A stretch of DNA of 64,000 nucleotides from contig JAUFOQ010000002.1 in NCBI GenBank assembly GCA_040285855.1, forward strand, positions 3,410,001 through 3,474,000. The letters are read 5' to 3'. The stretch comes from Eukaryota sp. GEM-RC1. Lineage: Eukaryota. How positions within the stretch are numbered: the first letter of the stretch is position 1; each line of letters starts with the position of its first letter. A program made the position numbers and the translations under genes. This document shows, piece after piece, positions 2,386 through 63,530 of this stretch. The notes below the pieces were generated by a model. That model saw only the letters and a program-made list of their open reading frames with translations. It made no database searches and was not told where the DNA came from.

Positions 2386-2553
2386 AACAAAGATGATACC
2401 AAAAAATCTTTTGTTTTTCCATAGCAAAGGGCATGAATTAGAGTAGATAATTGCCATTCGTATTTTATACTATACACTGAAAATGCAGTCAACTTGTATA
2501 TTCAATTATTTGACCCACCAATAGAAATTGCAACCAAAATACAAAAATATTTT

Positions 2554-3135: not shown

Positions 3136-3149
3136 TCAGCAAACGAGTA

Positions 3150-16290: not shown

Positions 16291-16329
16291 GGTTTTTTCA
16301 ATCAGCCATTCTAAGCTTACGCTTCTTTT

Positions 16330-17830: not shown

Positions 17831-17941
17831 TCAAAACTGATTGTTGCATATGAACTCTAATATCGTTTTGAAAAAATATATCACATAGAATTAAATAAAA
17901 TACAAGTGAATTTATATCACAATCACAAAGTTCTTGAAAAA

Positions 17942-25900: not shown

Positions 25901-25929
25901 TATTGATCATTAGATGTATTTTCACTGTA

Positions 25930-26700
25930 GTGTTGTTGTCAATAAAAATCTTTGGACAACAAAAAGACGTTGTGACATCCCCCTACAAACGTCGATATAC
26001 ATAACATCAGCAATAATGAAAGATCCATCGAGACCAGGAAATATGACATCACCACTGCTGATTCCAAACGATTTGTCAACATTTGTATCATCAAACAAAC
26101 CAGCCAGAACTGGTTCTAAAAAGGAGACTATTCCATAAGATTTACACATACAATATAATTGATCCCTTACTGAATCATGAACCTTACCTCTAAAAGAAAT
26201 AAAGCGGTTACAATTCAATAAATGTGTAGGTGATACAGTTTGCCCACATCGGTATTTCAAATTATGTGGTAGATTATCAGGCCAAATATATGACCGTAAA
26301 CTATGTTTAATGACCAAGAGTTATTATAAAGAAAAAAGACCGTAAAGTTGAGGGATTTGAGTAATCAGACATGAAGCAGAGCTATTAGAAACATCTATTA
26401 AGAAAATTACAAAGGGAGATGTTTTTCCTTGTCCATGCCATGTCGAACATTATAATCCAAGCTTTGAAAAATATTTGTTAGTTTCTGTTGTAATTTTTTC
26501 AGACAAATTTGAACATTAGTCAAACATCTTTCAGGAATTTCAGACACAGATTCTGGGAAACATTGAGACCAAACTTCAGAAAGTAATTTGATCAATACTT
26601 CGTTTAAGTCAGATATATATTTACACGAACTGGGGTTAATAAGGCAAATATCATTAGGAAATCGATTAACAAATGCAAAAATCAAATATTTCCGCCCCCT
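25930..26700 (-). mobile_element. RLE non-LTR fragment (family D, related to family A)
   Basis: RCGQ...HLLNC...VHDSVRD...GDVIF...IADV; related fragment at ~63240-63530. Confidence 0.8.
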
Positions 26701-35500: not shown

Positions 35501-38500
35501 GATTGCACTTCAATGGGGTGGTGACGTTATCAGATCCAGAATAGGAAAGAGATGATGTGACGTCTAGAAGGGAGGCAGAAAGTTCCAGGTTAACATCAGA
35601 ATCAAATGGATTAGTAATTTGAAAGTCTGTCCAAGTCAAGGCGTACACGTGACCAGTGAGCTCTACTTTTTGAGCGGGGGGTGCAGCCTTTGTTTTGGAC
35701 ATTAAGTTAAAGACAAGGGGGGCTGGAGCAGAGATATCAACTTTAAGTGGGATTAAATAAAGCTGAGAAGATTCTGATTTTGAGAATCTGAAATAATACG
35801 AAATTTTTAAAGATTTCTGTGACTTCGAAGGAATTGAAAGAAATTCCAGCTCTGAAGAGAAATTATTGAAATTATTATTGAACAGAACAATACGGTAATC
35901 AATTTGCTTGTCAGTCGGATTCGAAACTTTAATCGCCTTTACAGCAGTGGTCGACAATTTATCGTAAAATTGAATAATTTCAGACTGTGGTTCGAAGTTA
36001 GGCAAAATATGGGCCAACATGGACAACAAGACAATCATGTTTCTAGCAATAGGAAAGAGTAGATCATTGGGTTTTAAACCGGTTGGAAACCCAAGGTGAT
36101 TGTGCAAAACATCTAATATTTCCCCTGCATTTTTCTCCTTTTCTGAATCAATCAAAACTTGACATGTTTCATACTCAACATCTGACATACTTGAAAACTT
36201 CTGAATAAAAGAAAATTTGTCCTTACAAAAGAGCGGTAAATAAGAATACAGAAGACAAGCTAGAGGTATACAACTACAGAAATCAAAATCAAAATTAGTT
36301 ACTTGGATACCGAAATTTTTAAAATTTGAAAATATTTTAGAAACATGAAGGTTGACCCATTGAAGAAGAGTTCTTTCTGAATAACAAACAATCATTCCGT
36401 GACCGTCATCAATCAAATCATTTCCCATCACATCAACTGATAGCTGATCAGTTAGAGAGGTCTTAACACATTGATGGAGCAGAAAAGACCACGAATGAGT
36501 TGACACTAGCTCAAATGTAGACGTGTAGTGATTATGAAGTGATTGACGAACATGGGGGTCATTAATGTTCAAGTATGGTCGTAATTTGGAAAGTTCGGAG
36601 ATACTAGCTTCAATAAAAGAACTTTGAGGTAACAGATACTCTGGTCTAATGACATTAATTAACAAACCATACGATTTTAAAAGTCGACAACATTTTTCAA
36701 CAAATTTTAATTGTTGGTCAAATGCATCAGAAAATTTTTCTCTAGCAAAGGTATCGATTGGTTTTCCAGTTACTTTTGCAACCAAAATTTTAAAATTCTT
36801 GAAATTATTAGCAAAGAAATGATCACAACCCTGCAAATTCTTCTGAGACAAAATGAAACAATTTAAATAACACTGAATTAGACTTTGAGTACTACTGGTA
36901 ATCACTTCCTGTAAGTAAGGTGTTGTAGGTGGCAGTAGCGAAGGAAAGTTTCCTAAAGCAACAAACGAACTGGAACATGACTGAGTATCTGAGAAATTTG
37001 AAATATTGTTAAACAACTGGTCAACTTCAATTGAGTCCTTTTGAAGTCTGCCATCTTCAACTAAATGAATAAAATTTTCAAAATTTCGAGAAAACAAAGG
37101 AAACAACGTCATCATTGAGTCATCAAACACTCCCGAACACGGTACGGAATATAAAAGACCATCTCCCGCCAAAAAGTCAATCAAACAAACAAAAGAAATA
37201 GGTTTTGGAGAATTGATTTTGATCAGAACGTCAACACTTTCCTGATTGAAATCTAGTTTGTTTCCAGATACAAACTCAGCAGAAATGGGAATCTGAAGTT
37301 CTTCTGGTGGTAAGCGAATCTCCAACGTAATGTTGGAAAACCCAACATTGTGAATTGACATTGTAGTTTTGAGCTCGAATCCCACCGGCGCCGGGGGAAA
37401 AGACAAACGGTCATGACTAAATAATAAACTCGGAGCTGTAGATTCACCAGCAAGATATACTGATTGGGATTGACCGTCATCACTTTTGATTAATAATTTT
37501 GAATTGAATGTACCAAGTTTAGTAGGGGTGAAGGCAACAGAAAAAGTAAAGATTTCTTCAAAAGTCAAGAAGAATTTGTTAGACTTTGATGCAAAGTTGA
37601 GTGCAAAGTTCTCAGAATCTTCCAAGAAGAGCTCAAATTTGACTGGTTTAATCGGGTCAACGCAAGTCAATGAGATCTCATTTTGGTATAAAGTCCAAGG
37701 CTCTTCAGTTGACGAACTTACCACGACTTTTTGTCCAAAATTTAAATTATTATGAGACAGAAGTAGACTTCCTTCAAATGACGATACTGATACTTGACAC
37801 GTGTCTATGACGTCATCAGGAAGTCCAGAAATGGAAAGAGGAAGAGAAAAGTGGAAATTCTCAATGTCAATTGGATTGTAAACTAATGAAACTTGTACAT
37901 TGGACGTGCCTGGAACAGAAATTTTAAAAATTCTGGAAGTTTGACCACCACACGTCACATCCCAATCAATTTTTGATTGAGGTTTCCCTACCATCATAAC
38001 TAATTGACGACTTTCAACTAAAGATAACGAGTCATAAACAGAAACAGGTTTGTTACAAGGAGAAATTTCTTGGATAATGGCAGTTGAACTATCTAAATCG
38101 AGGGAAAACTGATTGTACTGAGAAAGGTCAAGAATGAGATCAAGATTCGATTTAGATTGATTGGAAATGGAAAGTGGCTGTGATCTTGATTGGCCAAGGA
38201 TCACATCATGATATTGAATTGATTCTGGGGTGATTGAAATATTAGGAATTTCTATTTGACCTCTGACAGCTATTTTAACAGGAGATTGCCCTGGACTTAA
38301 AATTTCAAGGAATTTTTGAAATTTACCCTCAAATTGCTCTACATTGCTCAACGACATCAATGAAACTTCAGTGTCTTCCCCTGGGCCAAGAATTTTACTT
38401 TCAGTAGATATTTTAAATATTTTGGATGCTTCAGGATCTTTGAAAGACAGTTTAAAAGGCCATGCAAAGGTACCTTGATTCTTGATGAAAAAACTCTTTT

Positions 38501-41041
38501 GGACAGTCGAACCAGCGGTCAAAAGTCCAAAATCAATCACTTTTTGACAGTCGACGTTATACGACCTTCCACAATGGTACCAATAACGTCAACCTTCACC
38601 ATCGGACCAAAATCAACCTTGAATTTGATTGAACCTGAATAGGAAACTCTTGAATCAGGTCTCAATTCGACCTTCAATCGAGCCGTCTTGAAAGGGGCAA
38701 TTGAATCCTGTGGACAGAAGAGTATACACCAAGAGGGGCACTCTTTAAGAGAGAAAAAGGCTGTAGAATTAGAGGTATTGGTGAGAACAAGTTCTTGGTA
38801 AGCTGGATTTAAAAACATATTAGAGCTGTTTGACCATTCAAAAGCTAGAATATCATTCACTGGTTGAAGAAGAATTTCAGTGATTTCAGCAAATAATTCC
38901 AAATTTAAAATTGATTGGTTGTTGATTGACACAGAGGGTGAAGCAGTGAAGTTACCAACCATATTTAAAATATTCGGCAATGTCTTGTCAATATTTAAAA
39001 TAATGTCAAATCCAGCCGTAGAATTAGGAGGAATTAGTTGGGTTTTGGAACAAGAAAGTAGAGGAAATTGAGCTAAATCAACTTTGATTGCAATTGATTG
39101 AGCAGTCCCATTATGAATATTAAAACTTTTGGCCACTTTTGAGCCAATAGCCAACTTACCAAAATCAATTTCAGTGACTCCGGCAGATATCAGTTCCAAA
39201 TCACAGTCAGAGAGCGCGTGCAACTTTCCTAATTCAGTTTTGGAAGGAGATGGAAACTTTTTAGTCACAAAAGAGTCAGCAGAAGTCAAGAGACTAGTAC
39301 TGGCAACTGATTGACGAGACTTCTGTAGCACAATCTTCTCAGTTAAAGGTAAACAACTTAATGAGGGAGGATTGATCTCGTCACCAGGAATCATTCCTAA
39401 ATCAACGTCATTTTCATACTGTTTCCTGAGTTCACGTGTCATTCTGAGCTCTTGTTTGACCCTTTGGCTTCTCATATGTTTAATGTATCCCATTCGGTGC
39501 ACGTGATTACCTTCCATTTCCTCCAAAGGAAGTTGATTGGGGTTTAAGGGATCAATGATGGTCGGATCTGTCTTAAACAAGGGTTTTTTAATAGTACTCA
39601 GTTTGAAAGAATCACGAGTATCAGGAATGATTGGGGTTTTAGACGTGATGGACGAGTGGAGATCACACTTGCCAAAAACAGAAAGTGGGTGCAATTGGAA
39701 AGTGGATTCCTGAGAAACACCTACAAACACAGGAATAGATCCTGTCAACTCACCTCCTTGCTTGGGACAAAAAACTACTGGAATAGAAATTTGAGAATTT
39801 TTTAAAATTTGAATTTGGGGAGAAGTGACGTTAAAGTGTGCAATTTTTCCAAAAGATACAACAAGATCATGCCCAGTTAAGTTCGAGACGGAAATGGTCT
39901 TTGTCGATGAGTGATTAATGACAGTCGAATCAAAATAGAGCTCGTACTGGTCAATTGCAATCAAAGGAACAACTGCAGATCCTTCAAAATTAAACTGAGT
40001 TGCTTTAGTTTCTCCTAAAGTAGTTGATGTCAATGTCAGAGTATACTCTAGTTTGAAAGGCGTTATAGGTAGGGACTTGAACTGTTTGGTCATAATTAGC
40101 CGCGAGAGTTTCAACAAGTTTTGACTTGACAACTTGGGCGTGAATGAGATTGAAAGTTTTACATTTTGATCTTCAGTTGTAATGGTTCCAACACGTGGCG
40201 TGACTTGTAGAAAAGTATCTGAGAGAAACTCGTCATGTTTACTTAATCCGGGGGTGAAATTTTTAGAAAAATTAAATTTTACGGATCCCCCAGAGTTATT
40301 CCAAAGGCAATATTCTTTTACTACAGATTTACCGAAAAACATTTGACTACAATCAAAATTGATTGATTTGACAACGTGATCGAGATTCCGTAAATCATAC
40401 AATGACAAAGTTTCCCCAAAAACAATAGCTCTGACCTCAATCAGTTGCTCATTAATGGGAACCTTCTGATGCTCGTCCATTGACATTGCCTGTATGTAAG
40501 AAGAGAAAGCTCCTGGATCCTGGGTGGTGAGATTCACTGAAACTGTAGAGGAAGATGCAGGCAGCAAGTGAACAGAAGAGGGAGAGACTTGGAGGTTAGG
40601 AAGGGATGCGTTGACTACAAAGGAGATGTTTGCAGAAGTTTGAGAGGAATTAGTGACACATAGAGGGAGGGAAGACTTTGAGAAGGACGGAATACGGATG
40701 AAATCAATTAGTTTATGGGAGAATGAGAGAGAGGGTTTGGGAGGTATAGCTTCGAGAGAAACACTTAGAGGGGGGTGATTGGAAAGAAGAATGATGAAGG
40801 AGTCATAATAGGGGGATAGTTTTGTACATGAAAAAGTGATCGTGAGGCTGGTGGAGATTCCTGGTGCAAGAGTGTATGATTTTGGTGGTGAAAACTGAAA
40901 AAATGAGGTAGATGGTCTTCTGAAACGAAGCTTTATACACGAAGAAGAGACGTTTTTGAGTGTTACACATTGAGTATAGGTGGTGTCAGTTGATATAGAA
41001 GTAAAGGACACCACCTTTGGAGATACCTCAAGGACGGGCAT
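32524..41041 (-). CDS. CFAP47: Cilia- and flagella-associated protein 47-like (multiple ASH/PapD Ig-like domains and a CH domain), two homopolymer frameshifts
   Basis: About 2830 codons after joining three ORFs; repeated IDFG...N motifs; CH domain SERTLLQWVNLHV...VTNFDFDF...LACLL. Confidence 0.8.
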
Positions 41042-41357
41042 TGGAAATGGAATTACTATACAATATTAATAAGCACGTTATCAATGTTCATCAATGAAGC
41101 AAATGTATACATTGTCATTGGTGTGCGTTTTACACATTTTGGATCTTGACGACCAACGCTTTTTCATATAAAAATTTTCTCCAAGGATATTGTTTTACAC
41201 CGCATCAACCACACTATCAACCACATAACTGTAATACGACTCCAAGTGTTGGAAGATGCCACGTATAAGAGGTTTGTAAAGGATTAGTATTTTCATTAAC
41301 AGTCTCAAAATTATAAAGGGGCTTCGTCACAAATACCAATTTTCTCACACACCTCAA

Positions 41358-42241: not shown

Positions 42242-43723
42242 CTATGAACTTTTTGGTTTTAATAGTTTTTTAAAAAGCACTCTCTCCGAGTAAACAAAAC
42301 TTAAAACATTGATGACCACCAGAAAACCCCCAAAGGCTAAATAACCAATAAACGACATTGAAAATTGAACAAGAACTGGAACAAAAGGATTGTAAAACAA
42401 ACGAAGAAGAGCCAAAGTTAGGAACAACAAAATGAAGGAAACTTTGCCAGGTAACAATGAAGTCAGTCTAATAGGAAACACGTCATCCTGATTGCCCTTC
42501 AACACTATATAGTTGTAGGAAAGCAGAGCCCTGGTGCTCATATTTAAAATAATTGATAAAATAACACCATTAAAAAGACCAAAAATGAATCAATATCAAA
42601 CTCATTACTACATTACAAACACTTAAAGCAATATACCAAAGATTTAACTTCTCCAACACTTCCCTTGATGAAACTGAATGAAGTACTGCCTCAAGGATAC
42701 CATTAATGGTAAGAAAAGGCAAAGTGGTGCATATCAGTGTGAGCAAACGAGAAACTTCAAACTCACAAAAAGTTGATTTAGAAAAGAGGAATCGTATGAC
42801 AGTCGCACTGTAAAAGTAACTAAAAATGATTGACAGACAACCTACAAACACCCCAATTCTCACCAATCCTAGGACTTTATATAAAACCTCGTTGTGATTG
42901 CTTTTAACAGTACTTTTGGCATACACTCTGTACACTAACTCCTCTATTGGTTGATAGAAAAACTTAATAACAAATGCAATCAATCCTTGGCAAAAGAGTA
43001 AAGGCCAAGTTGATGATCCGAAAGGAGAAAGAAAAGAACATTGTTTTCAGCTTCAGTAAGAATATACTTTAGGACGGTTTGTTTTGAATAAATCTTTAAA
43101 TACTGATACTCTTCTCCAGTCAAGTTAGAGTTAGTGAATTCCACTCTCAGTAAGACTGCCACGGAATACGAACACAAGAGAAAGAGAGAGCGGAAGAGAT
43201 AGCCCACGGCGTAGGACATTGCAACAGAGAAGTTGAAAAGGAAGCAAGCCATTGAGGCAAAGGTTTTGACCAAAAAAGATAAGGACAGAAACAGATTAGA
43301 AACACTGAAATTGTGTTCAGATGTTAAAAGAAGATTGTAAAACGGTTCTGAGGAACATTCGAGAAGTGAAGAGATAACAACGATTAACAAAGCACTCGAA
43401 TTTTGCTGTAGAATGGAATCTTCAGATCCAAATGTGAAGAAGAACAACAGAAGAAAGGAAACCACTAGTGAAAGAGGAAGTTCTAAGAAAAGCAGCTTAA
43501 GCAGCGACTTTGAAGGTTTGACTTCAACATTTTGGAGAATCAGACGACGAAAGGGTTCACGAGAAAGGAAAACAATCGATCGATTCAGGAGATCAAAACG
43601 AAAAGTAGCTACTCCAAATGAAGATGTATCTTTAGCCAAAGCGGACTTGTTGAGTAGGAATGATGAAAGTTTATTGAAAAGCTGGACTGATATAAGTTGT
43701 CCCAACCCATAGACATCAAGCAT
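42242..43723 (-). CDS. RFT1: Man5GlcNAc2-PP-dolichol translocation protein RFT1 (two homopolymer frameshifts)
   Basis: VFLSREPFRR, LECSSEPFY, KYILTEAE, FYQPIEE, INGILEA; many TM helices. Confidence 0.88.
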
Positions 43724-43783
43724 AGAACAATAATGATCCCACAAAATTTATCAGCTAAAATGGATGAAGAATTCTCTAAAGAA

Positions 43784-44244
43784 TTAACGACGCTTGGACT
43801 TGGACTTCGCGCTTTGTGCTTGAGCGGCTTCCTTCTGAGCCTTTTTCTGCATTTTAGTATCCTTAGCTTCCTTTGCGCTTCTGTAATTAATTGATTTACA
43901 ATAAACAATGCATACCTGATAGCAGATTCTCTTTTAGCGAGACGTTCTTCTCTTGATTCCTTCTGACGCTTGACGATTTCCTCAATAGAGGCACCAACAA
44001 CAGCTCTCTGGACCTTAACAACCTTTCTGCGAACACGTTTGCCTAAAGCGATTTCTTGTTCCTTCTTATGATCTTTACGCCAAGCAAGGGTCCATCCATG
44101 CTTACGGGGATTCCAACGGTGGTTGTAATGTGATAGAGCCTTGTGGCTTTCGAAGATGAAAATCTTTCCATCAGTACGAACGGCACGAATACCAGTGGCG
44201 GGAGCGATTTTATGTCCAGAGTAGGAGCAAACTTCTGTCTTCAT
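43784..44244 (-). CDS. RPL24: 60S ribosomal protein eL24 (35-nt intron 43881-43915)
   Basis: MKTEVCSYSGHKI...NPRKHGWTLAWRKDHKK...QRAVVGASIEEI; after splicing ends AKEAK...KSKRR*. Confidence 0.93.
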
Positions 44245-44552
44245 TGCTATGATAAGACTATATTACGTGTAAAACGTACAAAAAGAAAGGAGGGGAAAGG
44301 CGTTTCTTTCTCAAACATTCCAATTCACACTCTTTCATACCAAAACTCCCATCACATCCATTATACGATTCGGTATTACCAATCCGTACTTCGTGACTTC
44401 TACAAACAGTTCTTTACGATGTTGTCATCTCAAAAATTTATCAATTTAATAATCGTCAGTTTTCGTTTGAACCATAAAGCATTGTATGAAAAAGAACGTT
44501 AAATAACACATCAAAAGCACTACTAATACAAAATTAACAAAATTGCATTGAT

Positions 44553-45064
44553 TTAAAGGTATTTTCTCATATCATAAGCATTTTCTCCATCTGCATAATA
44601 CCCTTTTTCTTCAGAATAAAGAGTATAACCCAAAACATCTCGATACATATGTAATGCAGCTGCGTTAGACATACGAACATGCAGCGAACAATACCGTGCA
44701 TCATAAACCTCTCTAATGTAAATCAAAGTAAAAAACAACGTACTTCATCATTTTGTGTGCTAACCTCATCATTTTTGTTGCAAGACCCAATTTCCTGTGG
44801 GTCCGTAGTACAGCTACAGATGTTATATGTCCATGTGAAACAGAAGCATTTTCTTCCCTAAGATCAGGACTAGAGAAAAGATATACATTTTGCTAGTACA
44901 TAGCCCACGACTTTGCCCTGATCCTCTGCTACCCATAAGAGTTGTGGCCAGGTCGTGGCGTGGTAGAGATAGTATTTAAGATTGTAGTTTTCAGGAAGAC
45001 AGTGAAGATTACAGTCTTGGATAGCAGGGAGGTCTTCAATCTGGGCTTGTCGAAGGCAGACCAT
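44553..45064 (-). CDS. NAA10: N-terminal acetyltransferase A catalytic subunit NAA10/ARD1 (introns 44858-44886 and 44713-44743)
   Basis: [25 protein letters not shown](M)[47 protein letters not shown]. Confidence 0.95.
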
Positions 45065-45239
45065 AAGAAGAGAATTCAATGCAATGGAATTGGAAGATAT
45101 CTCGATATACACTGTCTCTGTCAGATTTGTTCTACATTCAGCTATGTACATGCATTACCAATTTCCTTAACGGTTAATGTTGAACAACGTAACCTTTCAC
45201 CAGACTGGGAAGTTGTTTGAAGCTAACCTTATTAAGAGA

Positions 45240-46920
45240 GAGATGTTTATTCGGCACCCAATAAGGTAACCTTTCTACAAACTATGAAATTGTAAAAACA
45301 GACAAATAATACTAAGATTAAATCCAAACGACTTCATCACCACCCGGTAAAAGATTACGTTTATCTACATGAACCTTCACACCAAACTTGTACAATTTCT
45401 CAATTAATCTAGAGAAATAGAAAGGCATATTCCGATATATGGAAAACACTATACGGTTTTTCCATTCAGCCATTCTAAACTTACGCTTCTTTTCTTTACA
45501 CAATTCTTCGAAATCCTTGAAAAATTGATCACCAGCAGGACTAATAGATCCAAAAAGAGAAACAGCAAAAGGTTGAAACACAAATTTGGAATATGAGTTT
45601 CTATTTAATTCTTCTACTTGAGAGTCATACTTGGTGTGTTTGAGCTTTTCAGCTGCTGTTAATGGATTAAATGAAGAATCTAATATCCTACTAACACAAG
45701 ATTTGTTACATACATCTACTGTAGTAAAATCCATTAATGCTTGACTCGATTTAAGCCACGGAGTATGTAGATCCCCTCGTTTTTGATCAGTAAATTCATT
45801 TTCTGAAAGATGATTCAAAACTGGTTCAACTTTAGAGTGAAAACCATGTGCTTTAAACATGGAATAACAAGAATCACGTACACCATCATGAATTATTGCA
45901 CGGAGATGAATAAAATAACGACAATTAATTAAATGACGAAAAACACCATTAGCTCCACAAGAGCACGTTGAATAGTTTAATAAATTTGCAGGCCAAATAG
46001 CCAAACGAAGACGCATATTGATCATCCAAGCTTCATCAGATAGATGTAATCCATACACCTTTGGAATTTGAGAAATAAATCCAGAAGGTCCACTATTACA
46101 AAGATCGATTAAAAAAGCAGCGAACTCGGGACTATTAGTTTTAGCCAAGCTAATACGATTATTAAAGTCCAAGAGTTCAAACTCCTTGTCAATTTATTTT
46201 GCAGCTTACATACAGCAGATGGTAGAGATGAAATATTTTTAAAGGAGTCTCCTTCAAATGAGCAGGGAACAAAGATTCCCACATTTCAGGAGACAAAGAT
46301 GATAACAAATCTTTAGCAGATTGAATCCAACGGCAATTACTGGAATTCAACAGATTGATTCCATCCAAGGGAAACCGTTTCAAAAATTCAAACATAAAAT
46401 TCTTAACACCTCCTAAAAGAGCAGATTTTCTAATGATTTTTGCATGGGTGAAACCTACTCCTGCGAATTCAGAAGAATAAAAAGCATGAAATGGAATCTT
46501 AGACTCATCAATTTCAGCCAAGTTAGAGAGAAAATTTGTTCTAATAGAATTAAATTTCTTGGCAAATGTTTCAGTAAGGGAATAGTCTAATGAACGTAAA
46601 AAATGATTAATTTTCCCGGAAAAACAGACCTGAAGCATAGCAAAGGAAACATGTTTGCTCACATCTAAAGATAATATTTGATTTAGTTTTTCTTCAATTG
46701 TAGTTAATGAACTCTCCAATTCTGAATGAATTTTCTCATAATTTCCCAAAAACGTGCCAAGGAAACGAAAACATTGAGTAGAATAATCGATGATAGGAAT
46801 ATTACAAAAACCAAGATTAGAAACATTCGAAGACTTAACAACAAGAAAACACTTATCAAAATTGATTGTTAAACCAATACTCAAAGAAAGTTCGATGAAA
46901 CGTGAAAAACACTTTTTGAA
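45240..46920 (-). mobile_element. Best-preserved family B RLE non-LTR retrotransposon (5'-truncated within the RT)
   Basis: End of RT (IGLTINFDKC, FRFLG), CSCG...HLINC...IIHDGVRD, KRGDL...MDFTT...AEKLKHTKY...FQPFAVSLFG; stop codon at 45318-45320. Confidence 0.9.
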
Positions 46921-46989
46921 CCTTATTAATACTGTACTAGTATTATTTGTACAAATTAAATAACAAGAATTTACTAATATTGTATTTGA

Positions 46990-47099
46990 TTCAATAAGAG
47001 TTTATTCGGTACTCAAAACGGTACCCTACCTACGAATATATAAATTTGCAAAAGAAGCAATTAATTCTAAGACTAAATCCAAATTCTTCCAGACCACCA
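46990..47099 (-). mobile_element. Left part of an interrupted family B retrotransposon 3' end
   Basis: TTTATTCGGTACTCAAAACGGTACC...CTAAGACTAAATCCAAA...CCACC resembles 45244-45344. Confidence 0.7.
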
Positions 47100-47387
47100 A
47101 CCAAACAATATTTGTTTATTCCAATAAACGATGGTATCTTTAATAATCAAGCTACTCACTGGACTCTGTTGATTTGTGATATTAAGAGAAAAAGATACTA
47201 TTCCCTTGATCCAATGTTTACTCAAAATCAACATCAAAAGTTTTCAGATACTTTAGGTCGTTGCGAAGATATTATTAGACAATTTCATGAGCGTGTGTTT
47301 TTTCCTTTCAATTATCATTATTTAGGAAGGCTTTTCGTAACTCAACACCAAACACAAGGTGACTGTGGACCTTTTATTTTAGAGTAA
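47100..47387 (+). CDS. Ulp1/SENP-like (C48) cysteine protease domain, 5'-truncated
   Basis: YLFIPIN...HWTLLICD...YSLDP...QTQGDCGPF gives the His-Asp-Cys triad plus the oxyanion Gln. Confidence 0.8.
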   Translation, partial: TKQYLFIPINDGIFNNQATHWTLLICDIKRKRYYSLDPMFTQNQHQKFSDTLGRCEDIIRQFHERVFFPFNYHYLGRLFVTQHQTQGDCGPFILE

Positions 47388-48320
47388 AAATTACGAAGAA
47401 TGTCAAAGTTCGCAAGTAGTTGAAGGTTCGACTGGTTCTTTGAATGAATTTCCTGAAATTCCAGTTGTTAAAGGAAAAAAGGAAAAAGAATCAAGAATTC
47501 CATTTATTGACATTGCAACTGATACTGTTGTTGATGACTCCCTTCCTACAGTTATTATAATTGATATTGAAACAAGAAACATCAATGAGAAAATTCCTTC
47601 AAGAGTGAACAAAGAATTGAATGAACATCGTAGAACGGAAAAAGAGTCTTTGAATCAGAGAAGATCTCTAATGAATGATTTTGAGAAAGAAGCTCACGAC
47701 CTTGATTTTCTCGCAGATCAACAAATCATCATGATCTCTGTCATTATTGCAAAATTGCAATCCAATGGTGAGGTACAATTTGACAGCTCAATCGTCCTTT
47801 ACACTGACTACAATTATAAAATCAAATTCAGTGAATCAGAAACACAAGCTTTTAAATTAGATCTTTTGGACTTCCCAAATGAAAACGAATTATTGGTTAC
47901 ATACGCTAATATTGTTAGTCAATATAAACCAAATGCTTTTATTGGCCATAATATTTTCAATTTTGATTTGCCCATAATTGATTGATAGAATGTGGGCTCT
48001 TGACCTTCCTCTTTTAACAAATCCAAATCCAATTGAGTTACCTTTACATAATAGATGGCTGGATATCATAAAAGATCACAATGGTTTTACAGTTTTGGAT
48101 ACCTTCTTGTTTGCAAAAAAATCATATTGGTCTCAAGTATGGTTGTAGTCTAGCCAATTTATCTTGGAATTTACTTTCTGAACCCAAATTGAAATTGGAT
48201 AAAGACTTGGACCACTTACTCCCAGTTGATTGTATAAGAAGTGATAAAAGAATGAAAACGCTAATCAACTACTGTCTTTATGATTCCATTCTGGCGTTTA
48301 AATTGTTTATTTTATTTCAA
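47383..48320 (+). CDS. PolB-family DEDDy 3'-5' exonuclease domain (N-terminal part of the Fanzor fusion)
   Basis: ExoI IIDIET (47560-47574), ExoII GHNIFNFDLPII, then VLDTFLFAK, SLANLS...LL.EPK, ExoIII YCLYDS (48270-48287). Interrupted by a 4-bp ATTG duplication (~47977-47984) and an A7 indel (48115-48121). Confidence 0.85.
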
Positions 48321-50630
48321 AAAGACAAAATTGTTTTTCAATCATGGGCTTCCATTAAAACTTCAGTTGATAGTGTAGTAAAACATCAAGAAGTTCAAGA
48401 TGCCATGCTTTTAGGATCTCAGTTCTACAATGCGTTAAGACAACAGACTACAATGTGTGTTAAAGAATATCTGTTGGCTCGCTATCGTCTTGGACAAGAT
48501 TTGTCTAAGTTTGATTACAAGTTGTTTTATCATACAATGCTTTCAATTAGAAATCTTTCATCTGAAGTTCATGAATTTAAAATTCCAAATAATCGTCCTA
48601 TATCAACAATTGATGCAGACCTTCGTGATTTTGTTGCTGGAGAAGGAATCTATACAGCCAATTCAAACTACCCCGGATATAAGCACTGTGTTACTGATAC
48701 ATTTGGCACATGTCATATACCAGAACTTGATTTTGATCATATCAGCAGAGCTTTTAAATACACTACTCAGTATGAAATGTGGCCTGCATTTGAACTAAAT
48801 ATTCGTCGCAATTATGAGTTGTACATTAAAAGATTTATCAATACAGTAATGGGTAAGAAAGAGTTTGAAAAGGGAATCAAGAAGAAACGTAATTTAGTTT
48901 TAGGTCCAGAATTTGCAGGACTAACAGGACGTGAAGCTCAAAAATTCACTAGTTACTTCAGATTTCGCTTAAAGATATTGAAAGATCAAATTTTGTATCG
49001 ACCTACAAATGAAGCCTTACAGTATATTAATTCTTTTAACTGTGCCACTCACACTGAAAATGTTAAGTTTATTGATGAAGTTTCCAAAGTTTTTGATGAT
49101 GATTTCAGTATGTTAATATTTGAACAGGTTAATTCTCTAATGGCTGATAAAATTCCAGAATTACTTCAAAGATTTAACATCATATTTCCTACTTCAATCA
49201 CTACTAACGACAATGAAACTGTAAACGTTCATAATTTACTTTACACAGTTCAGGAGTATCCACTTCATTTTCTTAGAAATTCTCTTCAAATCTCAGATTA
49301 CTTGGAATCAAAGGGTGCTAAGTTGTATAATGAAATTCCTCTAAGTTTAGAGAATACTCCCTGTTTTTTCCCAATAGACACTAGAACTCTTTGGGGACTG
49401 GCTAAGCACTGTTTTGGATATAAGAATAATGATAAGAAGATTGGTCCTTTACATTCAAAAGTGACTAATTACATGTCTGCTGATCAGATTAAAAACTTGA
49501 CCCATTCTCAACAACAGGATTACTGGAAAAGATGGTTTAACTATGATGACAGAAGTTTTCACAAAGCCAATTTTGAATTCAACAACTATGCTGTAACTGA
49601 TGGAATTTCGATTTGTTTTCAATTTGTGAGAAAGGATTTGAAAGGAATGAAATGTAAACCTGATTCAAGTAAAGCTTCAGTAAAAGTACAATATTTCAAT
49701 GAATGTGATAGGTCTGATTTTATTTCTAAACAAATGGTTTATGTGGACATTGGAAAACGAGATATGCTACAACTTGCATCTAAATCAGATAGGGAAACTC
49801 AAAATCCTCTAAAGAAATACAACTTCTTACGATTGACATATGCTGAGTGGTCTAGAGTTTCAAGAAAGCATAAAAGAATCCACCAGTACCTTGTTAGAAG
49901 GAGATCAGGTACTACTACCGTGAGAGCAGGTGATGACAATCCAATAACTGTGACAATGAAAATTGAGAAATGGAACACTTGGTTAAGTGAAGAACGGAAT
50001 TCTAAAACTGTTAATTACAATAAATTTAGAAAGTTTATTCTGGCTAAATGTATTCACTACAATGCAACTAAAGACTTCTATGCTTTGCATATATGGAGGA
50101 TTCACAAAATCCAAAAATCATGTCCATAAGCAAAAGACAGAGTCGAAATTGGTTAGCAGCATTGTAAAAACTTTTGGTAGCCGTGATAAAATCGTACTAT
50201 GTATTGGTGATTTAGGTCAGAAGCCAATGCCCAACTTAAAACACAGTCCACCATCCAGAACTAAGACTTGGACTTCATTCTTTCAGAGAAACGGTTTTTT
50301 AACAGTGATGAATGATGAGAGAAACACTTCGTCAAAGTGTCCAGAATGTCATGAAGATGTTTTTGAAACTTCTATTGAGGTTGTCAACCCAAAGCCCAAA
50401 TCAAGAGAGAAGAGAGAATGGATTCACCCCCATGGCTTACTAGAGTGTAAGAGCAAACATTGTCTGGGAGAAGTCAAGAAGCGATTGAAGGGGGGAAAAG
50501 AAAAGGGCACACAGTGCCCAGTCAAGTGTATTGGAATCGAAACAAGATGGCTTGTTTGAACATGATGAACATGTTCGAGCATTGGATGAATGGTAGTGAT
50601 GAGAGAGTAGAGTATCTGAGTAGAAATTAG
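48320..50630 (+). CDS. Fanzor1-like (eukaryotic TnpB-family) RNA-guided nuclease
   Basis: N-terminal SIKTSVDSVVK...VKEYLL; IDT; TDGISICFQF; RuvC-I VDIGKRDML; bridge-helix-like KQKTESKLV...FG; IGD; RuvC-II DERNTSSKCPEC; HGLLEC...C; RuvC-III WNR(N)KMACLNM; ends ERVEYLSRN* at 50630. Two 1-nt indels, near 50115 and 50495. Confidence 0.88.
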
Positions 50631-50700
50631 TTTTAATTTTGTTAGCTGGCTGGTGAAACCCGGCCATATTTGGTTAATTCCATTCGGTAAAAGATCACGT
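50631..50700 (+). ncRNA. Candidate Fanzor omegaRNA 3' region (scaffold hairpin plus downstream guide)
   Basis: Hairpin TGGCTGG-TGAAAC-CCGGCCA (50647-50666) between the Fanzor stop and the right junction; position matches where TnpB/Fanzor omegaRNAs are encoded. Confidence 0.5.
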
Positions 50701-50860
50701 TATTAAACATTAACCTTCACACAAAGCTTGGACAATTTCTCAACTAATCGAGAGAAAAAGAATGGTATATGGAAAACACTAAATCGAAATCCTTGAAAAA
50801 TTGATCACCAGCAGGACTAATAGATCCAAAAAGAGAAACAGCAAAAGGTTGAAACACTGA
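50680..50860 (-). mobile_element. Right part of the interrupted family B retrotransposon
   Basis: CGGTAAAAGATCACGTTATTAAACATTAACCTTCACAC...GATCACCAGCAGGACTAATAGATCC matches 45345-45580 with a deletion. Confidence 0.85.
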
Positions 50861-51600
50861 TTTTAAGCTTGGAAATTATATATGCGAGTACCTTTAGCTT
50901 TGTTTCCTGCAGAATTGCTGTACAATTCTGAATATGTTTTTAGTCATCGTCGCATTTTAGACATGTACTTAATTGTCCCAACTTTATTCAATTTCCTTTC
51001 AGTTCTTCATAATGCTGTCGGAGATGTTACATTTGAAATGTTCAAAGCTCATGGATTGCATGCCAAAGTTGAACCTTTATTTAATAAGTTGGGTCTGGAT
51101 TCAATAAATAATTCTCGTCGAGGTGACTTACGTGGTCCTTTTATTGATTCTAGTCAAATTCTCCTTGACAATACAACAGTAGATCCATGTGTTCAAACTT
51201 ATGTTAATGACTTAAATTCAAAAGGTTTCAATCACCTAGTAACAGCTTAAAAACGTAAAATTGATTTGTATTCCTAAGATGTTGCTGAACTCAATCAAAT
51301 TTATATTGACAATTATTATTTGTTTCGTTTGCTATTTTTATTTTTGGTAGTACAGTATTGGTGAAATGGCTTCTAAGTTTTTAATTGATTTTGGATCTAT
51401 GTGTAAGTCCCAGAATAGGATATTCTTGTTTTCAATTTTACATAACCGCTTGACTTTTTCTTTGTTCCGTTCTGTGCCTATGTTTTTTAAATCAATTTTC
51501 ACAGAGTTGTATACAAACTGTGGTATTGTTGACCAGGAATTTTCGGTGTTTAGTGCTTATATTATGATATGTATTGTTGTACCATTCATCAATAAACTGA
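50860..51600 (+). mobile_element. Family C non-LTR 3' fragment
   Basis: LFPAELL...LHNAVGDVTFEMFKAHG...NNSRRGDL, similar to 23640-24170 in inverted orientation. Confidence 0.85.
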
Positions 51601-52166
51601 TTTGCAATCTGATTTTTGATTTGATTCTTCCACTTGCGAGTCCTACTTGGGATGCTTGAGTTTTTCAGCTGTAGTTGACGGATTAAATGAAGAATCCATT
51701 ATCCTACTAACACAAGACTACAAAACTGATTATTGACGGTACAAAAATACATATAATAATAGAAGCTATGAAACTAAACACAAGACTTGTTACAAACTTT
51801 AACTGTGTCAAAATGCATTTATGGTTGACTCGATTTTAGTCACCAAATAATTAACTGCTTGCTAATGGTAACAACACCAGAACCATGGAAGATCTTGAAA
51901 AAGCTGCAGTGAACAATGAGTCTATACTTGTCCTTCTATTCTAAGACAGTAAAATTAGAAAACTGTTAAGAAGGCAAGAGCTCTTTTTCTCAGATCCAAT
52001 TTGTAAAAATGCAAAAGTACATGTATGGTGATATTTTAAAATTTTCATTCTAGTTGTGTGTTTAGAGACACCAAAAGATTGACGTCTACGATTGTGTTAC
52101 ACTAAAGAGCAACACACAAGTCTATAACGGAGATCTCTTCAACTTTGTTTGAAACCTACGAATCCT

Positions 52167-60530: not shown

Positions 60531-61180
60531 CTTTTTTTTTATACTAGAGTTTATTAAAAATGTAATAGATCAAACAACTAAAACTTGATGTCATTAAAAC
60601 AACACCCGTCGCTATCGAACCTTACAACAGCTTTATCCTCATAAAAGGCACTCACTGCTAATAAAGCTTTGGAGATGATTAGGGGAACTGTTTTAAAAAC
60701 AGTAAAAACGATCCGATTCAACCATAACATATGATCAAAACGTTTGTTCATCCTATTTTTTACGATTTTTCCGAAATCGTTTAAAAAATTCATTGCACTT
60801 TTTCCTAAACGACCGTAAATTGAAACGGCAAGGGGCATAATTCGTATTCAACATGTTTTACATGTTTTAATGCTAGCAATGCTTTTCTGTACTTATCCTG
60901 TTTGGCCTGTTCAGAAATGTCTAAAGGAGAAGTTTCAGACGAAGCGTTCTTTAAAGATGTCTTTTTACAAACATCCACCGACACTACATCAACAACAAAC
61001 AATTTGTCTGAAGAAGAAGGGACAACAACATCTGCTCTCCGTTTACCAAAAAATTGGTTCTGTTTTTCGACATTACAATTATTACTTGGTTCTAAAGATC
61101 TTAAAAGTGGTTCAACAAATGACTCAATTTTGTAAGACTAACACATAACATGTATTTGATCTCTTACAGCATCATGCATA
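60531..61180 (-). mobile_element. Family A non-LTR 3' end with poly(A) tail
   Basis: Near-identical to ~590-1220; the C-terminal 71 aa are identical in the ORF track; T-run at 60532-60540 is the poly(A) on the minus strand. Confidence 0.92.
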
Positions 61181-61922
61181 CACAACCTCTCTCTCAACAA
61201 TATATTAATCTTGAAAACTCAACAATGTTCGATATATTTCAATAAGATAAGATAAGTCAAGGGTATTGATTTTCATTCTGTAACCAGATTTTATCTTGAA
61301 GTCAATTTAGGATAAAGTAGTATTGTTTTGAAGCATTTGAACTCCAAGGTAACAGAGAGCCATGCAGTGACAGTGGCTTAAATAACAGATTGATCAAACG
61401 TAAACAGTAACGAACTAATCAAGATTGAAAATATATTGATTTAAGTTGCATACGTGCAACTAGAAATGAAGACGGGATGCTGTTCTGTAGAGCTAAAAAG
61501 GACTCTAGGAAACAATAAACCAATCTGAGCTCAAAAGTGTTAGGAAAGCAACTGTTCTTGTTGTAAAATGTTGATCTGTGGGATCAATCTACTATTGGAA
61601 ATTTTAATAAAGTATCCTCACACCTCAACCAAATCAGGCAAGAGTTGATGAATTTGATTAAATTCATGTTCCTGGTGATTTGGTACTGTTGTTATTGAAG
61701 ATATATTTATTGTTTTGAATCTAGACATCCAATAAATAGGATAAGATATCAATCCAAACAATATATTTCTTGTTGAATGTCACAACAACAATAAGATTCT
61801 GTTACAAACTACAGTAATGGACAGCTGCTGTGTATTACTGTAGTTTGACAAAATTAAATGCATTCAATAAGGTTTGTACCGTATCAAGTTCTTACAACTA
61901 CTGATTCGAATGAACTAAATTA

Positions 61923-62799
61923 TATGGATGTTAAATGGTTCAGTTCAGAACCGGTTCAGTCGGTTCAGTTCAGTTCATTGAACCGGTTTAGTTCACGATT
62001 TTGATGAACTGAACCGGTTCAGTTCAAGTGTTTGTGAACCGGTTCTGAACCGATTGAACCGATCATTTTTAGATGTTTGAACTAACACATTAAAATATAA
62101 TTATATTAGCACATGCGTTTTTGATAAGGCACCACAGATGTAAATCCAATAGAAAATGGGACATTTATTGAGAAATTGTAGGTTTGTGTACACTGTATAT
62201 TGTTTCCTCCCACCTAGACCGCACTTTACTTATCTTCAAAATCTTCTCTTAACATGATGGACATCTCTGACGATGATTTGTCGTGTTACAGGGTTTCTGA
62301 TAACACTGATGACTCTCAGAATGTTGCTGTTACTATCGATGACTCTTCTTCTGTCATTAATTCAACATTAAACCAACAAACAATCTTATCCTCGTTTATC
62401 ATCTTTATTTTTCTCAAAAGCTTCTATTCAACCCACTAGTGTTGCATCTGAACGTTTATTTTCACTTGCTGGACTTATTGCCAATACAAAGAGGGCGAAA
62501 TTAAGTGAAGAGTCTCTACAATCTCTTGTATGTCTGGACTCATGGCTTAAATCAAACCTAGATTAGTACATGACATGTAGATAACTCTATTTTCAAGCAA
62601 ATAAATTTATGTTTTCGTTCACTTTATTGACAAATTTGAGTTGAAGTCTTTTATTGAGTACACTTATTAAACTGAACCACAGTTCAGAACCGGTTCAGTA
62701 CCAGTTCAGTTCAGTTCAGCGAGGTGGTGAACCGGTTCAGCACCGGTTCATACTAGTAGTGAACTGAACTGAACTGAACCGAACCATTTAACATCCCTA
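61923..62799 (+). mobile_element. Internally deleted non-autonomous hAT DNA transposon
   Basis: TIRs TA(T)GGATGTTAAATGGTTC / GAACCATTTAACATCCCTA; perfect 8-bp TSD CTAAATTA (61915-61922 and 62800-62807); GTTCA and GAACCGGTTC subterminal arrays; dimerisation domain TSVASERLFSLAGLIANTKRAKLSEESLQSLVCLDSWL*. Confidence 0.93.
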
Positions 62800-63239
62800 C
62801 TAAATTATTAATAATATATTCAAAGATAAGATTTGCAATGTGTAATTCTCAGCGATCTGATCTTAACAAAACTTATAATCAAATTTCTTGTTCATTCTTT
62901 TTTGACAACTTTCTCAAAATAAGAGAGAAAACAAACGGCATCTTTACCAAATCGACCATAAATTGAAATTGCAAAATGACATCACATCATTACAAACATC
63001 GATAGACATAACATTAGCACAACAACACTACAGTGTACATACATCTCATAATCAATATCCTCAAAGTCCAGATTGCCTATCTGGAAATTCTCACCTACCT
63101 TATCCTCATAATGTCTGCCAAGAGATTATAAAAGCGCTAGATACAGAAGTCACCAAACCTTTAAAGATAGCAAACACAATTGATCTTTCATTATTCTGTT
63201 GTAATTTTTAGACAAAACTGAGGACTGGTCAAACACTTT

Positions 63240-63530
63240 CAGGTATTTCAGACATAGATTCTGAGAAACAATGAGATCAAACGTCAAAAGGTAATTTGAT
63301 CAATACTTCATTTAAGTCAAATAAATATTTACATGAACAGGGTTAGCAAGTGAAATATCATTAGGAAATCGATTAACAAATTCAAAAATGAAATTTGTTT
63401 CCGCCTAAAAAGCAAAAAACTGGACGAAACCAACAGCACAAAAATGAGCAGCAGTAAACAAGTTACTTGTAAGCAACGTTGAATCAACTTCTAACAAAGA
63501 TGCAGAAAAAATGAATCAACAATTAATTAT
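63240..63530 (-). mobile_element. Family D non-LTR fragment
   Basis: Similar to 26530-26700 (TCATTAGGAAATCGATTAACAAAT...; FVNRFPND). Confidence 0.7.

Follow-up and report, generated by a model that had tools for sequence, protein, structure and literature searches.

Does this locus encode a single protein in which a 3'-5' exonuclease of the DNA polymerase B (PolB) type is joined to a Fanzor nuclease, and what would such a protein do? A first-pass annotation of the window, the whole 64,000-nucleotide stretch of DNA that was analysed, had proposed an exonuclease-Fanzor of about 1080 amino acids, counted from the start of the ORF at 47383 to the stop codon. The fusion is real. A product of this extent is backed by intact relatives, by sequence matches to PDB entries and by the fold, and the same junction in relatives from three species argues against a chimeric join. 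The earlier picture was right about the exonuclease-Fanzor core and too small as to the unit: the core belongs to a larger polyprotein led by 2A-like peptides and an Ulp1 protease, it is encoded by a multi-copy mobile element, and the locus is a broken copy of that element, a relic.

Reading frames of the window copy

The features of the locus are collected in Table 1. In the window DNA, one frame without a stop codon leads from the ExoIII motif YCLYDS to the RuvC-I motif VDIGK, and SIKTSV, at the start of the Fanzor1 part, lies 27 codons past YCLYDS, close to the 25 or so first estimated. The claim of an uninterrupted ORF (48081-50129) that holds both ExoIII and the Fanzor1 start thus stands, but not its start, since the ATG at 48081 opens codons that are out of frame relative to the relatives and the true frame runs from 48123. 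ExoI and ExoII lie upstream where they had been placed and can be joined to the rest, but by a different repair. The three relatives that span 47983-47989 all read D-N-R/K-M there, so that the break amounts to a net gain of one base; the 4-bp duplication proposed instead results in the same frame but loses one residue relative to the relatives. Four frameshifts disrupt the window copy. The two within the RuvC half, +1 at 50115 and net -1 at about 50490-50504, had escaped notice, and they place RuvC-II with the zinc finger, and RuvC-III, in other frames. All four acidic DEDD residues and the ExoIII Tyr are present, as had been stated, and no polymerase domain follows the exonuclease: from residue 383 onward, the chain of a relative is Fanzor by its fold match.

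Table 1. Features of the window copy and its flanks (positions in the window)
Feature	Position	Strand	Evidence and remarks
Left flank	47000..47083	-	Forms the left half of the insertion target and belongs to the 3' end of a non-LTR retrotransposon relic; 77.6% identity over 85 columns with 45245-45328, where the neighbouring RT-endonuclease relic ends; retrotransposon homology ends at 47083
Ulp1/C48 SUMO-type protease, 5'-truncated	47084..47387	+	Pfam PF02902, E 1.3e-8; retains His 47157, Asp 47178, Gln 47355 and Cys 47364; P0027, 97% identical, extends about 85 residues further upstream, including a 2A motif
Internal-deletion joint	47385..47394	+	Ulp1 C-terminus and the 2A before the exonuclease removed; P0027 runs on past FILE, and P0008 has DGDVETNPGP ahead of EECQSS
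Linker and first half of exonuclease	47395..47985	+	ExoI DIET 47563-47574; ExoII GHNIFNFD 47944-47967; Pfam PF03104, E 3.6e-11; product 94% identical to P0008 residues 40-235
Exonuclease middle, shifted frame	47990..48121	+	Flanked by +1 breaks at 47983-47989 and 48122, relatives uninterrupted at both; product 95% identical to P0012 residues 1-44
ORF from ExoIII motif into Fanzor1	48072-50129		Unbroken
Exonuclease end	48123..48332	+	ExoIII YCLYDS 48270-48287; counterpart in P0183 reaches to residue 381
Fanzor1 N-terminal (WED/REC) region to RuvC-I	48336..50114	+	Single ORF, in frame with ExoIII, no linker; SIKTSV 48351-48368; TDGIS 49596-49610; VDIGK 49743-49757
RuvC-II and C4 zinc finger	50116..50500	+	Follows the +1 break at 50115, within an A run; DERNTSSKC 50314-50340; CPEC 50338-50349; CKSKHC 50446-50463; aligned to SpuFz1 via P0022, E 1.6e-14
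RuvC-III and stop codon	50505..50630	+	WNRNK 50532-50546; beyond the net -1 break in G/A runs
Element right end, candidate omegaRNA scaffold 3' part	50631..50680	+	Hairpin 50647-50666; boundary from flank homology
Right flank	50681..50863	-	Continues the retrotransposon relic that the insertion splits; identity 78-82% with 45345-45451 and 3011-3092, 97% with 45508-45587

The Fanzor1 domain

Pfam alone leaves the Fanzor part unrecognised: the 685-aa ORF had no match, and Cas12f1-like_TNB appeared only below the cut-off (E 0.023). The Fanzor assignment is based on PDB sequence matches and predicted-fold matches of relatives. The window ORF is 94-95% identical to P0001 and P0012 and about 50% identical to P0022, whose residues 861-1229 match SpuFz1 with an E value of 1.6e-14. 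In a structure model of the relative P0183 (pLDDT 79), the exonuclease and the Fanzor follow each other without a linker, and residues 383-1096 align to residues 18-631 of SpuFz1 (Z 27.7, rmsd 3.5 Å over 573 residues). A Foldseek search with this model reached an E value of 1e-28, and its best seven matches were all Fanzor1; a C-terminal part unlike Fanzor, the outcome that the annotation had named as fatal to its proposal, is thereby excluded.

The window encodes the RuvC-I Asp (VDIGK) and, six residues before a C4 zinc finger, the RuvC-II Glu (DERNTSSKCPEC...CKSKHC), a spacing that is a Fanzor feature (PMC13565253). The third RuvC residue is Asn (WNRNK) and not Asp, at the place where SpuFz1 has YWNRD, which gives the window copy a D-E-N triad. 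RN occurs in the window and in all 23 family proteins of a motif census, and in 3 of the 79 Fanzors from outside the family; P0018, a sibling, carries RD. Taken literally, the Fanzor motif of 2013, which ends in RD with the third catalytic Asp, is not matched by the window. Asn is found in GtFz1 too, which is accepted as an active Fanzor1, so RN is no bar to membership of Fanzor1 as currently defined. A reading of RN as the mark of a dead RuvC was rejected, since the D-E-N triad is active in GtFz1; moreover, the D606N variant of SpuFz1 cleaves better than the wild type (PMC11423790). By its sequence and its modelled fold, the element's Fanzor is a variant of Fanzor1.

The exonuclease domain

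The Pfam profile DNA_pol_B_exo1 (PF03104) scores above its curated cut-off for the ORF 47383-47982 (E value in Table 1) and for the relatives scanned. ExoI D-x-E, the ExoII Asp and ExoIII Y-x3-D are all found in the window. Among 28 exonuclease-bearing relatives, 19 show the ExoI D-x-E and 22 the ExoII Asp, the misses being models that start, end or skip outside the motif; every relative that spans the acidic DEDD residues has kept them, and P0123 alone carries another residue in place of the ExoIII Tyr. The polymerase domain PF00136 was found in no family protein scanned with Pfam. Residues 131-381 of the P0183 model match PolB exonucleases (Z 15.9). A profile of the exonuclease, run over 200 proteins that cover the best 150 of 757 representatives, matched nothing outside the family apart from one bacterial Pol II, and an ESM Atlas search with P0196 residues 880-1300 gave only PolB exonuclease leads below 0.9. 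Since the PolB groups (Pol delta, epsilon, alpha, herpesvirus, archaeal) are tied as matches, the donor of the domain is not singled out.

The DEDD fold also includes RNA 3'-trimming nucleases. The exonuclease might therefore mature the guide, trimming the 3' end of a read-through transcript to a guide of 15-20 nt, or clear cut DNA for turnover of the enzyme, in either case leaving the chromosome end alone. Trimming would suit the position of the guide at the 3' end of the RNA, where only about 15 bp are protected (PMC11423790). Arguing against such a role, all fold and sequence matches of the domain are DNA polymerase B proofreading domains, and the Fanzors studied so far reach mature guides without an exonuclease domain; we consider it decidedly unlikely.

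Relatives and the polyprotein

Relatives at 25-95% identity occur in three skoliomonad protists from soda lakes, with clusters of 18 and 11 family members within single species. They are automatic gene models in which false introns may bridge frameshifts (P0191 skips ExoI, and P0022 lacks 8 residues). The exonuclease-Fanzor junction is kept in 25 of the 28 exonuclease-bearing models, and the other three end before it; six models (P0022, P0033, P0182, P0183, P0196 and P0197) run from ExoI to RuvC-III in one chain. Exonuclease identities among six subfamily representatives range from 26 to 50% and track those of the Fanzors (Mantel r 0.86, 4 of 720 permutations), which suggests that the two domains were inherited together, in a test of six proteins driven by two close pairs. 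In a tree of 126 of 187 profile hits, each covering 380 or more profile positions (which left out P0184 and P0188 as too short), the skoliomonad Fanzors form one clade of 21 rows with a support of 1.0 and no outsider within it. Searches of IMG/VR (415 and 601 pattern matches) and of JGI metagenomes (592 and 42), made with short exact patterns that miss distant forms, confirmed no relative, and the ESM Atlas gave no usable match for P0022.

These relatives bear on the view that the fusion is an artefact of a chimeric join or that the RuvC is inactive throughout the family. The window copy, with its four frameshifts, deletion and truncation, could prompt such doubt, as could the many fragmentary sibling models and the family motif of Bao and Jurka, which ends in RD where the window has RN. 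The junction nevertheless recurs in three separately assembled species and across six or more subfamilies that share 25-53% identity, the catalytic residues being kept, and D-E-N is a known active triad, which makes either form of this view most improbable.

The full order is seen in P0196 (1846 aa): a 2A peptide, an Ulp1 protease, a basic linker, the exonuclease and the Fanzor. Across 200 proteins examined, a 2A-like motif was found in 15, every one of them from the element family; 10 match the 2A/StopGo motif D(V/I)ExNPGP (10.64898/2026.09.24.754024) exactly, four have His for Glu and one has NLGP. The motif always precedes Ulp1 or the exonuclease and never separates the exonuclease from the Fanzor, so that a predicted separating device present elsewhere in the ORF is left unused at the junction. 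At the window locus itself, a sequence search found no 2A motif. The His-Asp-Cys triad of Ulp1/C48 with its oxyanion Gln is present in the window (HWTLLICD, QGDCG), and PF02902 exceeds its cut-off for the window, P0027, P0029 and P0196. Relatives carry one or two Ulp1 domains. That Ulp1 is a gene of the retrotransposon was ruled out, Ulp1 and the exonuclease being combined in one model in six relatives (P0025, P0123, P0191, P0196, P0198 and P0199). The 5' modules are exchanged: the P0199 protease is 76% identical to that of P0123, the exonuclease of P0123 is only 24% alike, and the linker and exonuclease of P0199 are nearly identical to those of P0198. Such swaps fit copying that starts at the 3' end and changes template on the way.

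The fused protein could be the cargo of a larger parent, Helitron-, Polinton- or virus-like, with a replication gene further upstream; exonuclease, Ulp1 and Fanzor would then have accessory roles independent of one another, and the fusion would serve co-expression alone. The missing left end of the window copy would leave room for such a gene, P0182 has a DEAH helicase upstream, the sub-terminal hairpin 11 nt before the right end resembles Helitron ends, and 2A peptides have a co-expression role in retrotransposons (PMC3708506). We judge this unlikely, because the exonuclease and the Fanzor are joined with no linker and never by 2A, which does occur at other places in this ORF, because no Rep, polymerase, RT or DDE domain was found among the relatives scanned with Pfam, and because the pattern searches of IMG/VR confirmed no relative on viral contigs. 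The same Pfam scans showed no PIF1 domain.

Insertion and right end of the window copy

Truncated at its 5' end and internally deleted, the window copy splits a retrotransposon relic after CCAAA, with no target duplication and with 3-6 nt of the target missing. The flanks are only about 80% like other copies of the retrotransposon, so the missing bases may predate the insertion, and the junction argument is based on this one insertion. The neighbours of the element are eukaryotic, and 7,377 of the 64,000 window bases lie within repeated matches. An origin of the Fanzor as part of the flanking retrotransposon was ruled out: it lies on the opposite strand and interrupts the end of that ORF.

At the right end, a 3' hairpin is followed after 11 nt by the terminus at TTAA(TTC). 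No terminal inverted repeat, fixed target duplication or DDE transposase was seen in the window copy, which lacks its left end, and neither a transposase nor a left end was found for the element in the window or the relatives. The segment 50631-50680 folds with a z of -2.2 (5 of 200 shuffles equally good), short windows give -2.2 to -2.4, and longer right-end windows -0.8 and -0.03; as a candidate omegaRNA its fold is weak. Rfam holds no match for the right end, and its hairpin is present once in the 64-kb window.

Proposed mechanism

The best explanation, to which we assign a probability of about one half, is a homing element that couples a guided cut to 3' trimming. The Fanzor, a nuclease of a kind that is RNA-guided in its studied members, would use a guide RNA from the right end, with the first 15 nt or so of the right flank (+ strand) as the guide, to cut empty or look-alike sites. 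The tethered exonuclease would trim the 3' end at the break, and repair would then copy the element in. The Fanzor1s studied cut the non-target strand 14-17 nt past the TAM (PMC10432273), so that the TAM-side end has a 3' tail of guide-matching sequence, for which the donor offers no matching sequence next to its left end. The exonuclease would remove this tail and also block re-ligation; from the trimmed end, primed synthesis could then run into the element, or a copy truncated at its 5' end could be joined without a target duplication. Ribosome skipping at 2A would release the polyprotein from the leader; in two species it would also release Ulp1, whose role would be to remove SUMO from proteins of silencing or repair.

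A further step, which we put forward only tentatively, is that the element is transposase-free and self-propagating, homing under RNA guidance from repeat to repeat with no target duplication. The 2A-processed polyprotein would then supply both a SUMO protease that opens silenced chromatin and a single-chain cut-and-trim enzyme, and each new flank would become the next guide.

The same enzyme could instead be a destructive cutter directed at competing repeats or invading DNA, in which chew-back would prevent re-ligation and lead to deletions or microhomology joins; spread of the element would then be a by-product. Fanzor1 ends can be 5' overhangs or blunt, and SpuFz1 leaves 5' overhangs (PMC10432273), which a 3'-5' exonuclease would lengthen, a point that counts against homing. 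TREX2-Cas9 fusions enlarge deletions via microhomology joining instead of promoting copying (PMC13370227), a further point against homing. The right flank, and hence the predicted guide, belongs to an abundant retrotransposon relic; this abundance, however, also makes a chance insertion plausible, with one insertion readable. The family is multi-copy and decays like a selfish element, as its clusters show, unlike a single-copy domesticated gene. We regard the destructive cutter as rather unlikely and retain homing with 3' trimming as the preferred reading.

No description of a natural exonuclease-Fanzor fusion, and no catalogue entry for one, was found in the searchable literature; within these bounds the cut-and-trim design is in no paper, in agreement with the annotation. 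If the transposase-free reading is true, no earlier natural Fanzor would have had an end-processing nuclease of its own, and target duplications, variable in Fanzor elements that lack an exonuclease, could be explained as untrimmed guide-matching tails. Homing has been shown only for the prokaryotic TnpB and IscB (PMC13565253). A catalytically intact 3'-5' exonuclease kept down to about 30% identity points to events after the cut, and the family would have a D-E-N active site at the ready. As far as the searches reach, the leader of 2A and Ulp1 would add a Fanzor element, and the metamonads, to the known range of ribosome-skipping polyproteins.

Comparison with known systems

The closest known proteins are Fanzor1 nucleases. 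SpuFz1 of Spizellomyces punctatus (PDB 8gkh, 9ceu-9cez), PpFz1 (9cf0) and GtFz1 (9cer) match the modelled fold over their whole length with Z of 27.7, 25.7 and 22.8. The element shares with Fanzor1 the RuvC-I Asp, the Glu six residues before the C4 zinc finger, the multi-copy state and an ORF that stops about 50 nt short of the right terminus; with GtFz1 it shares the D-E-N triad. It differs by a 250-residue DEDDy exonuclease that is attached directly, with no linker, where SpuFz1 has its residue 18. Ahead of the exonuclease come 2A-like peptides, either one Ulp1 domain or two, and the basic linker, and whole models measure 1233-1846 aa, compared with about 600-750 aa for the solved Fanzor1 chains. 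Unlike in Fanzor1 elements, no terminal inverted repeat or transposase was seen.

Among Fanzor-bearing elements, CRe-1, -2 and -3 (Fanzor1 in non-autonomous Helitron2 of Chlamydomonas reinhardtii) and MCi-2 (Mucor) resemble it in 5'-truncation, which is frequent in CRe-1 to -3, internal deletions, intact 3' ends, a sub-terminal 3' hairpin and a Fanzor 3' part that stays constant while the 5' modules vary (PMC3627910). The accessible part of that report names no exonuclease, protease or 2A in them. Truncated copies of CRe-1 to -3 have target duplications of 7-19 bp after TTTT (PMC3627910), whereas the window copy follows CCAAA with none.

The exonuclease is like the PolB proofreading domain in its ExoI, ExoII and ExoIII DEDDy motifs and in its predicted fold (Z 15-16, rmsd about 3.1 Å over about 185 residues) and unlike PolB in having no polymerase domain. 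Homing of the phage T4 td intron, which involves I-TevI, the 3'-5' exonuclease of the PolB polymerase gp43, DexA and RNase H (PMC2988022, PMC12153337), likewise has a PolB-type exonuclease promote copying at a site-specific break. This is an analogy only, and the element is not a member of that system: separate phage proteins would correspond to one chain, and RNA recognition would replace protein recognition. The fusion would also be the natural counterpart of the exonuclease-Cas fusions that engineers make for editing efficiency and deletion size. In TREX2-SpCas9 (PMC13370227), too, a 3'-5' exonuclease is tethered to an RNA-guided nuclease; that protein is man-made, TREX2 is not a PolB exonuclease and Cas9 is not a RuvC-only nuclease of the TnpB family, whereas the skoliomonad element combines a PolB-type exonuclease with a Fanzor1 in a single natural chain.

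Structure of the window copy

The six motifs named in the first-pass annotation were all located (see table). As had been claimed, the join of exonuclease and Fanzor needs no frameshift correction because YCLYDS through VDIGK share one open frame. The upstream ORF was recognized as an exonuclease by Pfam (DNA_pol_B_exo1, E 3.6e-11, above the cut-off), and directly upstream of it lies an Ulp1/C48 protease fragment (Pfam E 1.3e-8) with its catalytic residues present. That the copy is broken was also seen correctly, but the two lesions first listed, a 4-bp duplication and an A-run indel, are too few, as comparison with the relatives gives more.

Features of the element copy and of its surroundings (positions in the window)
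Feature	Position	Basis
ExoI motif DIET	47563	
ExoII motif GHNIFNFD	47944	
ExoIII motif YCLYDS	48270	
Fanzor1-type N-terminus, SIKTSV	48351	
TDGIS	49596	
RuvC-I motif VDIGK	49743	
5' truncation	47084	
Internal deletion	about 47385-47394	
+1 break	47983-47989	versus relatives
+1 break	48122	versus relatives
+1 break	50115	versus relatives
Net -1 break in G/A run, before RuvC-III	near 50490-50504 (site 50484-50504)	versus relatives
Stop codon	50628-50630	
Hairpin	50647-50666	
Retrotransposon pieces (examples)	142-1503, 2110-3140, 13261-13857, 16238-17858, 23430-26697, 45245-47001, 50681-51843, 60550-63405	

Of the six close siblings that span the break before RuvC-III, five are out of frame there, in two different frames. 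Since the named relatives are proteins from Nanopore-based assemblies, a systematic homopolymer error is likely at this position. The run also contains G_GGA_AAA, a heptamer of the slippery type whose frame would suit a -1 shift. Bases 47400-47410, at the internal deletion, can be read in two ways: in frame with the protease they give MSKF, which comes after FILEY in the relative P0027, and in frame with the exonuclease they give ECQS, which P0008 also has. This double reading points to a deletion steered by a short near-repeat.

The two flanks, 47000-47083 on the left and from 50681 on the right, are halves of a single retrotransposon relic, as shown by their matches to 45245-45328 and 45345-45451 in a neighbouring copy. 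The element therefore extends from 47084, where this copy starts within the protease, to about 50677-50680. Comparison of the flanks of this one insertion revealed no target duplication, and 3-6 nt of the target are missing. The fold at the right end is modest, with 5 of 200 shuffles equal or better for 50631-50680 and no signal in longer windows.

The window belongs to a compact eukaryotic genome (about 35% G+C). Scattered across it are numerous degraded remnants, frequently nested in one another, of a non-LTR retrotransposon family that has a reverse transcriptase, a CCHC finger and an endonuclease of restriction-like type; these labels come from reading the translations, and Pfam gave no match. 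A tblastn search with the endonuclease ORF found 30 pieces in the window, including the query itself, and repeated matches cover 7,377 of the 64,000 bases. Compact genes at 42242-45154 and 33627-41065 presumably belong to the host; they resemble RFT1, ribosomal protein L24 and the N-acetyltransferase NAA10, together with what we take to be two long cilia-type proteins.

Relatives and inheritance of the fusion

A search with the long ORF as query yielded two clusters. One, P0001 (830 aa, 95% identical), has 18 members and is named from Eukaryota sp. GEM-RC1; the other, P0002 (44% identical), has 11 and comes from TZLM1-RC. An exhaustive search with P0012 gave 757 matches at E up to 0.001; ten of the best 150 were looked up, and nine of these belong to skoliomonads, with TZLM3-RCL, the third species involved, supplying seven. 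Four further TZLM3-RCL proteins, together with one bacterial Pol II, came from a profile search. Skoliomonads, a group of metamonad flagellates, live freely in soda lakes (part of PMC11316075 seen). Because the relatives are skoliomonad proteins, the host of the window is, judged by these sequences, a skoliomonad or close kin. Outside skoliomonads the fusion was not found; scans of viral and metagenome contigs, which are insensitive, were blank.

ExoIII continues into Fanzor in 25 of the 28 exonuclease-bearing relatives examined, the other three models stopping sooner. The ExoI D-x-E is present in 19 and the ExoII Asp in 22 of the 28; each miss comes from a model whose start, end or skip leaves the motif uncovered. 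Six models form a single chain from ExoI through RuvC-III. The relatives are automatic gene models, some of which bridge gaps, whereas for the window the junction was taken straight from the DNA sequence; an artefact is hardly credible, and the architecture itself is almost certainly real. Between six subfamily representatives, identity is 26-50% for the exonuclease and 25-53% for Fanzor, and the two identities co-vary (Mantel r 0.86, 4/720 permutations, six proteins only). The 21 family rows group as one clade (support 1.0) in a tree built from 126 Fanzor regions. P0001, P0033, P0196 and P0197 carry a precomputed Pfam accession, PF26935.1, in the database.

Polyprotein and domain identity

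The relatives place the Ulp1 protease within the same element, with 2A-like peptides at intervals along the ORF. TZLM3-RCL has 2A, one or two Ulp1 domains, basic linker, exonuclease and Fanzor (P0196, 1846 aa; P0123, P0191, P0198) or 2A, exonuclease and Fanzor (P0049, P0187, P0188); TZLM1-RC has Ulp1, 2A, linker, exonuclease and Fanzor (P0025, P0022); in GEM-RC1 one 2A precedes Ulp1 (P0027-P0031) and a second the exonuclease (P0008). Of 200 proteins surveyed, 15 contain a 2A-like motif, all of this family, and none of the 15 has it between exonuclease and Fanzor. These peptides are predicted from their motif; 2A peptides are known in viruses and non-LTR retrotransposons (PMC3708506, in part).

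In P0196 both members of the tandem Ulp1 pair that follows 2A have the His and Cys motifs. P0199 is a mosaic, its protease 76% like that of P0123 and its linker and exonuclease nearly identical to those of P0198. P0182 (2027 aa) has, ahead of linker, exonuclease and Fanzor, a DEAH-box helicase of divergent sequence whose best PDB matches are DHX8/Prp43 (E 1e-21); as this arrangement was seen once, it is possibly a merged gene model.

P0022 matches SpuFz1 over residues 861-1229 (E 1.6e-14) and human Pol delta in the exonuclease (E 0.008). With an AlphaFold2 model of P0183 (150-row alignment, mean pLDDT 78.8), the top seven Foldseek matches were all Fanzor1 structures. In VIA-align, residues 383-1096 superpose on SpuFz1 18-631 with Z 27.7 and an rmsd of 3.5 A over 573 aligned residues, and residues 132-381 on PolB exonucleases with Z 15.9 and an rmsd of 3.1 A over 185; no linker separates the two parts. 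Viral matches were Fanzor-like proteins of giant viruses and polymerases of viruses, the two kinds in separate proteins. The RuvC triad is D-E-N, its third residue being Asn in all 23 family proteins caught by the census as against 3 of 79 others; the sibling P0018 has Asp there. The site is probably live, because GtFz1 with D-E-N is active and SpuFz1 D606N exceeds the wild type (both from the part of PMC11423790 seen).

The linkerless DEDDy exonuclease-Fanzor that ends a 2A/Ulp1 polyprotein is thus a real, lineage-wide variant of Fanzor1, of which the window holds a relic, and it is apparently undescribed. Full-text literature searches, judged by titles and the starts of abstracts, did not find it (supplements of 10.1101/2023.08.09.552727, subscription journals and Repbase lay outside their scope), nor did titles and abstract starts of Fanzor literature on Helitron2/TnpB, DEDD, Ulp1, domain-protease fusion and Fanzor1 evolution. 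"Exonuclease" is absent from the main texts of PMC10530073, PMC10432273 and 10.1101/2023.08.09.552727, from the searched supplements of the first two, one PDF excepted, and from the 2026 review PMC13565253; the parts seen of PMC6338049 and 10.64898/2026.06.03.729735 hold nothing further on such an architecture.

Possible role of the exonuclease

Homing with end trimming has a probability of roughly 0.5. In the Fanzor1s that have been studied, the non-target strand is cut 14-17 nt beyond the TAM (PMC10432273, in part), so the TAM-side end keeps a 3' tail of guide-matching DNA, partnerless beside the left end of the donor. Left in place, the tail would give rise to a target duplication; a tethered proofreading-type exonuclease would remove it and block re-ligation. 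The duplication-free junction of the window copy and the mosaic 5' modules fit homing with trimming. Against it stand the single readable junction, with flanks about 80% like other copies, the fact that 5' overhangs trimmed 3'-5' give no recombinogenic ends, and the deletions that result from TREX2-Cas9 fusions (PMC13370227, in part). Destructive cutting is an unlikely function, and maturation of the guide by the exonuclease a distinctly improbable one; that the fused domains are cargo of a larger, unseen element is quite unlikely.

For homing with trimming, two known systems offer comparison. The 5'-truncated Fanzor copies of the Chlamydomonas reinhardtii CRe elements have 7-19-bp target duplications (Bao and Jurka, PMC3627910, in part), which we infer may be untrimmed tails, and T4 intron homing employs 3'-5' exonucleases of this kind (PMC2988022 and PMC12153337, each in part).
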